Below are positions 58,699 through 63,081 of a stretch of 64,000 nt of DNA, one piece after another. The translations under genes were made by a program, and so were the position numbers. The first letter of the stretch is position 1; the number at the start of each line of letters is the position of its first letter. Location: IMG/VR virus record IMGVR_UViG_3300020248_000002. The stretch is one strand, 5' to 3'. The notes under the pieces were generated by a model. That model searched no databases and was not told where the DNA came from. It saw only the letters and a list, made by a program, of their open reading frames with translations. The stretch is from a virus.

Positions 58699-59465
58699 TG
58701 GAAGAAATCCCAAATATTATTATTTCGGATCTCTACATACCAAACACAAATGCTGTAAATGTACCACCGTGGGTTGGAAAACCCGCGTGGTCGTTTGGTC
58801 CTAGCGTTCCTGTAACAGTTGACATTGGAACTCCTGTTGTCAATATTCCAGGTTGCGTTGAAGCACACGAACTCAATAATCAAAAAAATAAAAATCTTGC
58901 TGAGGATGATCCTGATAAAACTATCACATATTGTGATGGAGGAGTACCATCTTTTGAGACTATAGATTATAGAGAAGATGAATTAATATTTGAACAGGAG
59001 ACTGTGGTTCCAGATATAGCACCACCTCCAGAAATAGAAACACCAGAAGTAACACCACCAAACATACCTTCTACAGATAAAGAAATAGAATGCCCTGCAC
59101 CTAATCAACCTAGAGTTGGTGATCTAACTCAGAATGGAGAAGAGAGAGTTATAGGTCACGAGGTACGAGAAGGTCAATGTGTAGTGTTATATGAGGACAC
59201 TACAGTAGTCGAAAAATTTTTACCATCTACAAATCAAGTATCTGTGACAGCAGCGATAGCAGTGGTTGCTACAGCATCTGCTGCTGCGACACCATTATTA
59301 TTGAGAGTTATAAAACCTGCAATAAAAAAACTCACTACTACCATACAGAAGAAGTTCGGTAAAGAACCACCTAAGTTAAGTCGTAATGAGATACAGTGTA
59401 ATAAATATCGTGAGAAAAAAGGACTACCTCCCTTCAAACTTCCTAAAAAGAAAAAGAAAAATTAA
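58698..59465 (+). CDS. Pro-rich protein with C-terminal TM and basic tail
   Basis: PVTVDIGTPVVNIPGCVEAH; TM segment VTAAIAVVATASAAATPLLL. Confidence 0.7.
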   Translation: MEEIPNIIISDLYIPNTNAVNVPPWVGKPAWSFGPSVPVTVDIGTPVVNIPGCVEAHELNNQKNKNLAEDDPDKTITYCDGGVPSFETIDYREDELIFEQETVVPDIAPPPEIETPEVTPPNIPSTDKEIECPAPNQPRVGDLTQNGEERVIGHEVREGQCVVLYEDTTVVEKFLPSTNQVSVTAAIAVVATASAAATPLLLRVIKPAIKKLTTTIQKKFGKEPPKLSRNEIQCNKYREKKGLPPFKLPKKKKKN

Positions 59466-60340
59466 TTATTACCAATAGATACTTCTTTTAATAATGAAGC
59501 ATCTGTACTAGGTATTGTATGAGCGTGGTTTGGAAGAACTCCAGGTGGGTTTACTAGAACCACATCGGCACATACAGCATAGTATGGTGAGTCTTTATGG
59601 AACATTATTCCTGCCTTCATCAGTTCACCACAATTTTTTAATCTCGCGATCTCAAAGTCTAATCTTTTATTAGCAGTGAGTTGTTGTGAATATGCTATTT
59701 GAGTTGCTACTGCTTCCTTACACTGGTCTTGTAGTGTCTTGTCTAATGGTTTAGACCACGTTGCACTAAAACCTATTGATATAGAATGATTATCTTTCTG
59801 ACCTGTTCTTACTGGAACTTCATATAACACCACCCCTGGATTATCTGGTGCACCATCTCCTGTGGGATTTCCATTTGCATCTGTAGTACCAGTCAAGTCA
59901 CGCATATCATACACTTGATCAAACCATATATCTTCGTAGGGACGTTGTAGAGATGTACTCCCTGTAACATACGGTGTGAAGTTTAACGTTGGACCTTGAC
60001 ATTGTATGCCATTTCCATAAGTGTTAGTTATATACGGACCCTGCAAAACCTGTATAGCTTGATTTGTGACACTTCCAGAACTGTTTGCTATTGGCGATGC
60101 TGTTGCTGACACACCACCAACTGTCTCTGCACGCATAGGTAGAGCGTTAGCAGTGAGAACTGTTGCTATTATTGTTGAAATATACTTTGCGTATCTGTGA
60201 CCGAAGTTACGGTTGTTTCTCTTTGTATTACTGTATGATTTATTAGACCTGGGGCACGATACGTCTCCGTGAACTGGAACGCTGCTCCTGGAGTTGTTAT
60301 CGTGTAGTTTGGTTTGTTTGCGTGGTCTAAGTCTTGCCAT
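59462..60340 (-). CDS. exported/membrane protein with amphipathic beta-strands (start uncertain)
   Basis: Signal-like IIATVLTANALPMRA; CQGPTLNFTPY; SISIGFSATWSKPL; RLKNCGEL. Confidence 0.65.
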   Translation of the reverse strand: MARLRPRKQTKLHDNNSRSSVPVHGDVSCPRSNKSYSNTKRNNRNFGHRYAKYISTIIATVLTANALPMRAETVGGVSATASPIANSSGSVTNQAIQVLQGPYITNTYGNGIQCQGPTLNFTPYVTGSTSLQRPYEDIWFDQVYDMRDLTGTTDANGNPTGDGAPDNPGVVLYEVPVRTGQKDNHSISIGFSATWSKPLDKTLQDQCKEAVATQIAYSQQLTANKRLDFEIARLKNCGELMKAGIMFHKDSPYYAVCADVVLVNPPGVLPNHAHTIPSTDASLLKEVSIGNN

Positions 60341-60612
60341 TGCGAAGTCACTCCATTAATAGTATTAGATGAACCATTCCCTATAGCGGGTGATATGGTT
60401 GTTCCATCTTGTGATATGTTTGTACCACTGACCGAATATTGCCACCCTGTCGCATAATCCATAGAATTTATGGTCTCCGTCACGGTGGAAGTCGTTTCCG
60501 TGTGGGAAGTCATACTACCCTGAGAAAAATTTGGCACCACAGGCACTGCTATGACTGGGTTTACGCCCATAGTCAACGTTGCAATGCCACATATGTACCA
60601 TACACGTTTCAT
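60169..60612 (-). CDS. exported Thr-rich beta protein
   Basis: Signal peptide ending VIA; VPVVPNFSQGSMTSHTETTSTVTETI. Confidence 0.7.
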   Translation of the reverse strand: MKRVWYICGIATLTMGVNPVIAVPVVPNFSQGSMTSHTETTSTVTETINSMDYATGWQYSVSGTNISQDGTTISPAIGNGSSNTINGVTSQWQDLDHANKPNYTITTPGAAFQFTETYRAPGLINHTVIQRETTVTSVTDTQSIFQQ

Positions 60613-60625
60613 ATTATATAGTTAC

Positions 60626-61135
60626 TTATTGGATGGTTAATTCAGTTGTGAATTGTCCTACAGCACCTGTACCTGCTCCACCTGCTGTTAGTGAAATCGT
60701 ACCAGATGAATCAACAGTTCCTGCTAAACTATCTTTTGTACCTGCTGCTGTGGATGTCTGATTACCGAACGCTGATACTGCACCTGTGGTCAACGTTGTT
60801 GATATGGCATCACCTTGATTCCAAGATTGTGTAAAGCTGAAACTTTCCCCTGCTGTTGCCTGAACTGCACCGAGAGAAGGTATTGCTCCGACACCTGTAG
60901 ATGCGGTGATTGTCATAGCACCTATGGTGTTGTATGATGCACCATTAGAATCTGTACCAGTTGTTGTAACGTTATTACCTGATACACTGTAAACGTTTGG
61001 AGTACGACTTACCTGAGTCGCTGCTGCATTCACATTTAACTGGATACTAGATTGAATTTTATGCGTTAAATCTGCCCTCGCTGATAGAGGTGCACCCAAT
61101 ATTCCCATAACAATAACGAAAGCGAGTTTCTTCAT
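60626..61135 (-). CDS. exported G/S/T/A-rich beta protein
   Basis: Classical signal peptide MKKLAFVIVMGILGAPLSARA; late-promoter-like CTAAATA on the minus strand at 61166-61172. Confidence 0.72.
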   Translation of the reverse strand: MKKLAFVIVMGILGAPLSARADLTHKIQSSIQLNVNAAATQVSRTPNVYSVSGNNVTTTGTDSNGASYNTIGAMTITASTGVGAIPSLGAVQATAGESFSFTQSWNQGDAISTTLTTGAVSAFGNQTSTAAGTKDSLAGTVDSSGTISLTAGGAGTGAVGQFTTELTIQ

Positions 61136-61283
61136 TGTCTTTAAATTTAGAGACTATACTGGCTCTATTTAGACAAATGAATGGTTTCGTGACACCCGTA
61201 TATTTACTTATGGTTATCCTCCTAGTCATAGCAATACATATAGTGTTAAATAGTATTGTCGCCTTACAGGGACACTATTCACA

Positions 61284-61299
61284 CTCGCTTAAAAAGGAG
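61284..61299 (+). promoter_or_regulatory. ROSE-like SD-sequestering hairpin (candidate RNA thermometer)
   Basis: CTC(G)CTT-AAA-AAGGAG: a UCGCU motif pairs with the SD leaving a bulged G, 7 nt before the hsp20 ATG. Confidence 0.55.
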
Positions 61300-61306
61300 A
61301 ACTATT

Positions 61307-61750
61307 ATGGGTACGCTATCTAGGTACACAGCAAATGACCTTGACTTTCTAATGGATGCTATAGAGAAAACAAGCATCGGATTAGGACCAACTCTTAAGA
61401 GATTGGATGTCACAAACGGATCTAACAGATCCTATCCACCATATAACATCATCAAAAACTCAGAAGAAAACTGGGAGATTGAGATGGCACTTGCAGGATG
61501 GGATAAAGATGACATAGAAGTATCTACAGAACAAAACGTTCTAACTATTGCATCTAAAAAAAGTAAAGAAGATGAAGAACCACGCACACACGTGCATCGT
61601 GGACTCGCATCTAGAGAATTTACTCAGACTTTTAACCTTGCTGATGATGTAGAGATTGGAGAAGTTCAATACAAGAACGGTCTTCTATCAATAAGTTTGA
61701 ACAAGATTGTACCAGAACATCAGAAGAGAAAAGTCTTTGATATATCCTAA
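61307..61750 (+). CDS. hsp20: small heat shock protein Hsp20
   Basis: YPPYNI; IEMALAG; HRGLASREF..TF.L; NGLLSI.L..IVPE; AGGAG SD before ATG 61307. Confidence 0.93.
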   Translation: MGTLSRYTANDLDFLMDAIEKTSIGLGPTLKRLDVTNGSNRSYPPYNIIKNSEENWEIEMALAGWDKDDIEVSTEQNVLTIASKKSKEDEEPRTHVHRGLASREFTQTFNLADDVEIGEVQYKNGLLSISLNKIVPEHQKRKVFDIS

Positions 61751-61761
61751 ATTAAGGACAC

Positions 61762-61790
61762 TTGACAATGTTAGTGTATTAAGATATACT
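61762..61790 (+). promoter_or_regulatory. sigma70 promoter TTGACA-N17-TATACT with overlapping GTA-N8-TAC box
   Basis: Consensus -35 and near-consensus -10; GTATTAAGATATAC at 61776-61789. Confidence 0.7.
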
Positions 61791-61800
61791 ATATAATTAT

Positions 61801-61890
61801 ACAAAGGGATCGAAAGATCGTGCCCCTGCGTAGATTCAAAAGACACCTATGTCGAGGTAGTCTAACATCCGCGGGGGTTTTCCTTGCGAG
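61801..61890 (+). ncRNA. structured 5' leader RNA (candidate cis-regulatory element)
   Basis: GC-rich island with three hairpins, including GATC-GAAA-GATC, and an alternative long-range pairing. Confidence 0.55.
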
Positions 61891-61905
61891 AAATTAAAAA
61901 CAAAA

Positions 61906-62253
61906 ATGATTAAATCACTATTAGCAGTAGCATCTGTCTCTGCACTCTCAGCACCTGTACTAGCAGGTCCTTATGTCAACGTAGAAGTAAACTCATCTCT
62001 AACAGGTAGTAACTACACAGGCACAACAACAGAATTACAAGTCGGATATGAAGGAGACAACTGGTATGTTTCTGGTGGTCCTATCACAACTGCACCTGAC
62101 GGTGGTGAGTCTTCAACAGACTTCATTGGATACCTTGGTGGTTCTGTTGACGTAACCGAAGCAGTTGGAGTGTATGGAGAGTTTTCACTACAGACAGCAG
62201 ATGCTGCTGATAACGCATACGGTGTTAAGTTAGGTACAAAGTACACTTTCTAA
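61906..62253 (+). CDS. small porin-like outer-membrane beta protein
   Basis: Signal peptide ending VLA; alternating beta-strands; C-terminal GTKYTF (terminal Phe, BAM-type signal). Confidence 0.7.
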   Translation: MIKSLLAVASVSALSAPVLAGPYVNVEVNSSLTGSNYTGTTTELQVGYEGDNWYVSGGPITTAPDGGESSTDFIGYLGGSVDVTEAVGVYGEFSLQTADAADNAYGVKLGTKYTF

Positions 62254-62882: not shown

Positions 62883-63081
62883 TTACCTTATGGGAGAGGT
62901 TACTGAATTAGATGAAGAACCATCATACTTAATTACAGGTTGTATGAAAATTGATGGTGATAAAGTATCTGCTTTTCCAGAACATACAGATCAAAGAGAT
63001 GTCTTCTTGACATCTGATGTAATTTTGACTATAGTAGATCCATCCAAAGACGCAATAACTAATTACAAGAAAGCATTGTGA
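62842..63081 (+). CDS. hypothetical protein
   Basis: GGAGG SD; LTSDVILTIVDP. Confidence 0.65.
   Translation: MAPIKLVILRDSLSYLMGEVTELDEEPSYLITGCMKIDGDKVSAFPEHTDQRDVFLTSDVILTIVDPSKDAITNYKKAL

Follow-up and report, generated by a model that had tools for sequence, protein, structure and literature searches.

A conserved ROSE-like two-hairpin leader precedes hsp20 in T4-like cyanophages and may gate its translation by temperature

Introduction

T4-like cyanophages are among the most abundant viruses in the ocean, and hsp20, which encodes a small heat-shock protein (sHSP), is among the 25 genes common to all of them (PMC3037559). Here, we analyze the leader of hsp20 in a stretch of 64,000 nucleotides, the window, which is part of a 112-kb IMG/VR virus record (IMGVR_UViG_3300020248_000002) from a T4-like cyanophage. 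The original prediction for this DNA held that a late-promoter-like box is followed by a ROSE-like RNA thermometer of a kind undescribed in cyanophages. We find that the leader folds into two hairpins, the second of which pairs the Shine-Dalgarno (SD) sequence of hsp20 around a bulged G, and that this structure is conserved and covaries among related phages and resembles that of ROSE thermometers. On the strength of this comparison and of predicted folding, we consider it reasonably probable that the leader (approximately 61257-61306) is a temperature-gated SD mask, that is, a short two-hairpin translational control element of the ROSE-like kind.

Results

The hsp20 gene starts at an ATG at 61307-61309 and ends with a stop codon at 61748-61750. 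An alternative TTG start (61256) in the list of open reading frames (ORFs) falls within the leader, and it is the N-terminus from 61307 that aligns with other phage Hsp20 proteins. A search with the protein matched 507 phage records, nearly all of them Synechococcus or Prochlorococcus myoviruses, and an ORF for a gp43-like DNA polymerase begins at 63078 in the window. The window Hsp20 aligns with Escherichia coli IbpA across the whole alpha-crystallin domain, in an alignment that also took in IbpB, and cyanophage sHSPs stand next to bacterial class A in a published phylogeny (PMC3827213). The features of the locus, with minimum free energy abbreviated as MFE, are:

61246..61252, plus strand: promoter-like box TTAAATA (GTTAAATA from 61245), recognized in the sequence, one mismatch against the cyanophage late consensus NATAAATA
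61257..61274, plus strand: hairpin I, UGUC-G-CCU / UAC / AGG-GACA, with bulged G61261 (MFE and centroid structures, covariation)
61275..61283, plus strand: unpaired, A/C-rich nine-base spacer between the hairpins (RNAfold, leader alignment)
61284..61299, plus strand: hairpin II, CUC-G-CUU / AAA / AAG-GAG, with bulged G61287, the presumed sensor (sequence, MFE and centroid structures, parse of 82 leaders)
61307..61750, plus strand: hsp20, a 147-residue sHSP, IbpA-like (bacterial class A; PF00011, E 3e-16)

Read directly from the sequence, every element named in the original prediction sits where it had been placed, and both hairpins are present in the RNAfold MFE and centroid structures. In hairpin II, the anti-SD CUCGCUU (61284-61290) pairs with the SD sequence AAGGAG (61294-61299), with G61287 bulged between two SD guanines; UCGCU (61285-61289) thereby lies opposite AGGA (61295-61298), in the ROSE register. 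All four bases of the SD core GGAG (61296-61299) are paired, and seven bases then separate the helix from the AUG. The spacer between the hairpins varies in length and sequence among relatives and retains its richness in A and C.

For comparison, leaders were gathered from the hsp20 loci of ten divergent isolates and of 80 IMG/VR contigs found by a protein-alignment search, with start codons picked by frame and SD, which yielded 82 distinct leaders. The Hsp20 proteins concerned are 36-56% identical to the window protein overall and 40-54% for the IMG/VR contigs, with the exception of one 97% relative. Hairpin I occurs in all 82 leaders as 4 base pairs, a bulged G and 1-3 further base pairs, closed by a loop that is mostly UUCG or GNRA. 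Hairpin II, parsed free of register, is likewise universal (82/82), with 3-4 base pairs, a bulged G and 1-3 base pairs, and covers 3-4 of the 4 SD core bases. UCGCU or UUGCU is found in 65 leaders; in the remaining 17 the motif is ACGCU and the SD has moved by three bases, yet the helix is retained. The check that the original prediction had called for, alignment of hsp20 leaders from related phages, thus bears it out: the anti-SD/SD pairing with its bulged G is kept throughout, compensatory changes included.

Covariation was scored on an alignment of the leaders made with a covariance model built from them. Four of the six pairs of helix I show compensatory changes on both sides, and 97.8% of its cells are paired. 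The covariation score of the whole structure is 0.274, as against 0.113 for shuffled alignments (none of 500 reaches 0.274) and no more than 0.096 when the register is slid by 1-3 columns. Helix II is only 89% paired in this model-fitted alignment, a figure that is an artefact because the 17 shifted-register leaders were aligned by their SD sequence and not by their structure. In these 'class B' leaders the helix reads AGAC-G-CUU / GAG-GUCU and the SD lies three bases further 5' within it, so that CUC/GAG is replaced by GAC/GUC; elsewhere CUU/AAG changes to CUA/UAG or CUC/GAG, the optional fourth outer pair is U-A or A-U, and S-TIM61, a cyanophage outside the Kyanoviridae, has CAC-G-CUU / AAG-GUG. 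A leave-out model (R2), from which this phage and its 97% relative were excluded, recovers the window leader with 47.5 bits (E 4.5e-11), as against 10 bits for the next hit in the 64 kb, and neither a pattern search nor the covariance model found a second copy of the leader in the window or in the 112-kb record. From a plain MAFFT alignment, RNAalifold retrieved the outer stem of hairpin I and no more, since differences in loop length misalign the rest of the structure.

The hallmark of ROSE-like thermometers is a U(U/C)GCU anti-SD that pairs imperfectly with the SD, leaving a bulged G, in the 3'-proximal hairpin (PMC3669281). Their short type, known from Pseudomonas ibpA, has two hairpins in a leader of 61-62 nt, with a G+C-rich hairpin I that does not melt and an unpaired AUG; its hairpin II opens between 25 and 42 °C, and removal of the bulged G abolishes regulation (PMC3669281). 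The phage leader likewise lies within the 5' untranslated region (UTR) that precedes an sHSP gene of the IbpA/class A type. Its U(U/C)GCU anti-SD pairs imperfectly with the SD in the 3'-proximal hairpin, G61287 is bulged opposite the SD in the MFE and centroid structures, as is its counterpart in every one of the 82 leaders, and a stable 5' hairpin precedes the sensor hairpin, making two in all.

Set beside Pseudomonas ibpA (ROSE_3, RF02523), the phage leaders share the position in the 5' UTR of an IbpA-type gene, exactly two hairpins in 50-62 nt, a stable hairpin I with a bulged G of its own (GAU-G-CC...GG-GUC), an unpaired spacer, a hairpin II in which U(U/C)GCU pairs with the SD around a bulged G, and an AUG outside the helix, 7-8 nt beyond it. 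They differ in that phage hairpin I has 7 pairs rather than about 11, that phage hairpin II has 6 pairs with an A-U pair at the loop end, that phage late-type or sigma-70-type boxes stand in place of a heat-shock promoter, and that they belong to viruses of cyanobacteria. E. coli ibpA (ROSE_2, RF01832) shares the CUCGCU...AGGAG core with its bulged G, a similar spacing from SD to AUG and the gene family, whereas this element and the original rhizobial ROSE elements fold into three to four hairpins, with a sensor helix that exceeds the phage one in length and stability (-4.6 kcal/mol at 37 °C for E. coli, -2.2 for the phage). ROSE_2 gives nothing on phage leaders, and with the phage model R1 the one part of E. 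coli ibpA to be matched is the sensor hairpin, at 8.6 bits; as a positive control, ROSE_2 scores E. coli ibpA at 100.4 bits.

Two further RNAs were set beside the phage leader by description only. The hsp17 leader of Synechocystis masks the SD of a cyanobacterial sHSP gene with a single hairpin, without the UYGCU/bulged-G motif, and cIII of phage lambda has an RNA thermometer with two alternative folds that works in the opposite direction. Synechocystis hsp17 is mentioned in the study of the Pseudomonas element (PMC3669281).

The two hairpins differ in predicted stability. Hairpin I has a free energy of -7.8 kcal/mol at 20 °C and -5.2 at 37 °C, and is predicted to be a stable 5' hairpin that does not melt across the physiological range. 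For hairpin II, nearest-neighbour parameters, which leave out non-canonical pairs known in ROSE, give -4.9 kcal/mol at 5 °C, -3.1 at 20 °C, -1.1 at 37 °C and about 0 at 50 °C; removing G61287 in silico takes the value at 20 °C from -3.1 to -7.3, making the helix about 4 kcal/mol more stable. On an extended segment, hairpin II has -4.4 kcal/mol at 20 °C and -2.2 at 37 °C, and its E. coli ibpA counterpart -7.1 and -4.6. By linear interpolation, the phage helix is as stable at about 11 and 24 °C as the ibpA helix is at 30 and 42 °C, which fits, as far as these models go, a set-point of hairpin II that has moved toward sea-surface temperatures; it is from these energies that we infer the working range of the leader.

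The late promoter consensus of cyanophages (PMC2984593) is close enough to the box in the window, with its single mismatch, for the label late-promoter-like to be a fair one. Among the 82 leaders the box is NTAAATA in 40 and TATAAT-like in about 30, the latter often with a terminator ahead. Because roughly a third of the related phages use a TATAAT box for the same leader, the leader is not tied to late transcription. The box ends 4 nt ahead of hairpin I in the window, and 4-7 nt ahead of it in nearly all leaders that have a box, so that the first base of hairpin I, or one next to it, is the probable start of the transcript, and hairpin I very probably forms the 5' end of the hsp20 mRNA.

Thirteen of the 82 leaders have no promoter-like box ahead of hairpin I. 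Four of these, of the S-CAM3 type (L020, L090, L100 and L046), carry a terminator-like hairpin with a T run about 10 nt upstream, which suggests that these phages rely on read-through or processing instead of a dedicated hsp20 promoter. Two other loci, a freshwater-type phage contig (L075:153-279) and S-SRM01 (L019:210-325), give matches to PrrB/RsmZ of 29.6 bits (E 0.0021) and 21.6 bits, against an Rfam cut-off of 44; these stretches are GGA-rich and end in a terminator directly upstream of the hsp20 promoter, and the terminator hairpin may account for most of the score.

The gene and its leader also have counterparts in cells. When a single genome of each prokaryotic species was scanned with the protein, none of the best 80 cellular matches to the phage Hsp20 came from a cyanobacterium; a few probable phage contigs in metagenome-assembled genomes (MAGs) come first, followed by Pelagibacterales, HIMB59 and other marine alpha- and gammaproteobacteria, with identities of 35-48%. 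On these 80 matches and the published phylogeny (PMC3827213) rests the view that cyanobacterial hosts lack the element. Many of the marine proteobacterial relatives have the same kind of leader upstream of hsp20, of which we found no description in the literature searched. Like the phage leaders, those of Pelagibacterales and other marine alpha- and gammaproteobacteria have a bulged-G hairpin I, and their sensor hairpin reads CUU-G-CUU / AAG-GAG or AAC-G-CUU / GAG-GUU, the latter being the shifted register of the 17 'class B' phage leaders. They differ in that they are often richer in A and T, some with a third hairpin between the two, and they score about 10-45 bits on the phage model. These sequences are most simply read as a joint transfer of the gene with its leader, in either direction, between cyanophages and marine proteobacteria or the phages of the latter.

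The top 'cellular' Hsp20 matches are L111 (NZ_RMVE01000006.1, a 188-kb contig of Nonlabens xiamenensis), L115 (CP070751.1, the chromosome of a Thermoplasmata MAG) and L113 (Euryarchaeota TMED129). They are 44-53% identical to the phage protein and have leaders of the cyanophage type that score 51-69 bits, two of them with CTAAATA boxes. Probably these are phage DNA binned or assembled into genomes of non-hosts, or integrated or co-cultured T4-like phages.

Discussion

We propose that the phage inherited its leader along with an IbpA-type sHSP gene and uses it as follows. Transcripts from the TTAAATA box would have their 5' end at hairpin I or beside it, and this stable terminal stem probably shields the mRNA and aids folding downstream. 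The anti-SD CUCGCUU would then pair with the SD AAGGAG, with the bulged G61287 holding helix II at marginal stability. At low temperature the ribosome-binding site would be mostly closed; upon warming, the six-pair helix would open gradually, allowing 30S subunits to bind and Hsp20 to be made.

Several observations weigh against this proposal. The folding energy of the 73-nt leader is unexceptional (z = +0.63; 147 of 200 shuffles fold equally well) and SD occlusion places hsp20 fourth among 22 candidate starts in the window; neither measure singles out the leader, and the case therefore rests on comparison. When the full leader is folded by RNAfold together with 15 coding bases, the SD is still about 90% paired at 37 °C, so that the predicted opening is small and gradual. 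The short Pseudomonas type of ROSE element has G-C pairs flanking both sides of the SD/anti-SD core, and the window has one only at the lower flank (C61284-G61299); the upper flank is an A-U pair (U61290-A61294), as is usual in phage leaders (CUU/AAG), and an upper G-C clamp is necessary in Pseudomonas putida (Krajewski et al., PMC3669281). A phage that kills its host within hours may profit little from sensing heat, and the conservation of the leader could reflect any use of SD masking, not specifically a response to temperature.

Rfam gives a divided answer. Its models, those for ROSE (RF00435, RF01832 and RF02523) among them, match nothing in the whole window at the gathering score or in 61100-61950 at E 10, and ROSE_3 has no match in the phage's own record. 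ROSE_3 aligns over its full length to the leaders of relatives, namely the Methylophilales phage Melnitz (34.1 bits, E 0.0012), L096 (30.0 bits, E 0.013), L097 (25.4 bits) and S-SRM01 (19.2 bits); all of these (19.2-34.1 bits) lie below the cut-off of 43 bits, so that by Rfam's criterion the phage leader is no member. The ROSE_3 consensus and the phage leaders nonetheless share GAUGCC...GGGUC in hairpin I, ACUCGCU and AGGAG, and marine proteobacterial hsp20 leaders of the same build mostly fail in Rfam too, which indicates that the ROSE models are narrow. The original description of the leader as ROSE-like thus holds for the U(U/C)GCU/bulged-G motif and the layout of the hairpins, and does not extend to a match of the window with an Rfam ROSE model.

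The alternative that survives best, though we judge it unlikely, is that the leader is an operator for self-repression: free phage Hsp20 would bind its own leader, perhaps at the two bulged-G modules, and block translation until it is titrated off by unfolded proteins, so that temperature would act only indirectly. IbpA of E. coli, Cedecea and Vibrio binds its own 5' UTR and blocks translation, for which an irreplaceable Arg93 and an aromatic residue at position 34 are needed (Cheng, Miwa and Taguchi 2023, PMC10474464). The leader is of the same type in that system and in the phage, and the equivalents of Arg93 and Tyr34 (R103 and Y43 in the window) are kept in nine of nine phage Hsp20 proteins aligned, the only aligned protein without that arginine being IbpB, which is inactive in self-repression. 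Both phage hairpins, moreover, have a conserved bulged G between C-G pairs, which exceeds the needs of a mere stabilizer hairpin. Against this, R97 and K98, which IbpA requires, are replaced by Q107 and T108 in the window, and other phages have R or K at the first of these positions only; papers devoted to cyanophage sHSPs do not address their regulation. Self-repression could also work alongside a thermometer.

One version of such a combination would make the leader a two-input sensor, in which hairpin II opens over about 10-25 °C and free Hsp20 closes it again through the paired bulged-G modules, a proposal that we regard as rather improbable. If it were true, this would be the coldest set-point known for a ROSE element, the supply of chaperone would follow the temperature of the water and also the infected cell's folding load, and the leader would help to set the thermal range of infection of the T4-like cyanophages, pelagiphages and methylophages that share it.

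Still less probable, in our view, is constitutive tuning, in which hairpin I is only a 5' stabilizer and hairpin II reads no signal, fixing the level of translation or delaying it until a general phage factor acts. Hairpin I does start within a few bases of the predicted transcript start, 5'-terminal stem-loops do stabilize mRNAs (discussed in PMC3669281), and SD accessibility is predicted to change little between 10 and 30 °C. Several relatives have hsp20 directly downstream of regA, annotated as a translation repressor; regA is not adjacent to hsp20 in the window, however, and the conserved motif contains GC. A plain attenuator, moreover, needs neither an invariant bulged G nor an exact ROSE register, yet hundreds of divergent phages, along with their counterparts in proteobacteria, retain both, and the same architecture is a thermometer in Pseudomonas (PMC3669281).

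That the ACTCGCTT(A/T)-rich stretch is instead a DNA element, a Pho box through which host PhoB ties hsp20 to phosphate stress, is very hard to maintain: a 2024 study of S-PM2d gave ATTCAAACTCGCTTAAATA upstream of hsp20 as a putative Pho box, but in the same study purified PhoB did not bind the hsp20 fragment in a gel shift and hsp20 did not respond to low phosphate (PMC10976474), the site lies downstream of the promoter box, within the transcribed leader, and across the 82 leaders the A/T part is free to vary, whereas covariation with the SD is seen for CGCU and its complement, a pattern of conservation that points to an RNA rather than a DNA element. The motif itself fits poorly as well, since a cyanobacterial Pho box calls for tandem PyTTAAPyPy(T/A) repeats upstream of the promoter and the window has ATTCACAC-TCG-CTTAAAAA, of which only the second half fits in part. 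The comparison accordingly corrects the published annotation of this motif.

The thermometer that we favour would, if real, be a virus-borne post-transcriptional sensor of the environment that has been conserved in cyanophages, in a methylophage and in a Pseudomonas jumbo phage. It would extend a regulatory RNA of alpha- and gammaproteobacteria to viruses of cyanobacteria, and would give studies of temperature effects on infection something concrete that is easy to test. Full-text literature searches found no description of a cyanophage hsp20 leader or thermometer, in agreement with the claim that the element had gone undescribed in cyanophages; the leader is not discussed in the dedicated papers on cyanophage sHSPs, and a 2024 review treats temperature-responsive viral RNA structures as unexplored speculation (PMC10884466). 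In structure, the leader adds a viral example to the known ROSE-like kind. With its two SD registers and helices weaker than the enterobacterial ones, the leader family is also a natural series for studying how the set-point of a thermometer is tuned.

Neighbouring features

Upstream of the leader, 59462-61135 on the minus strand holds three divergent genes for signal-peptide-like, Thr/Ser-rich proteins, one of which is a DUF6322 protein (PF19847, E 1.4e-38). The gene adjoining hsp20 is annotated as 'OMP1 protein' in relatives, and the ORFs at 59462-60340 and 60169-60612 overlap by 172 nt.

Downstream of hsp20 lies a second structured non-coding stretch (61763-61905), upstream of a Phage_OMP/DUF680 gene (61906-62253; PF24653, E 6e-39). 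A TTGACA-N17-TATACT box close to consensus (61763-61791) comes first, and the roughly 105 nt after it are non-coding, structured and conserved; the MFE is -31.5 kcal/mol (z -3.18). An Rfam search of 61100-61950 at E 10 gave no match to this stretch. At the DNA level it is 74-78% identical to sequence at the same position in P-SSM2, P-HM1, P-HM2 and marine single-virus genomes, whatever the gene upstream, and P-TIM68 has about 70% identity over a longer match. Five pairs of its central hairpin show compensatory changes among seven sequences. The stretch looks switch-like: CCCCUGCG can pair with CGCGGGGG, followed by a U run in the manner of a terminator, or alternatively CGCGGGGG can pair with a downstream UUGCGAG.

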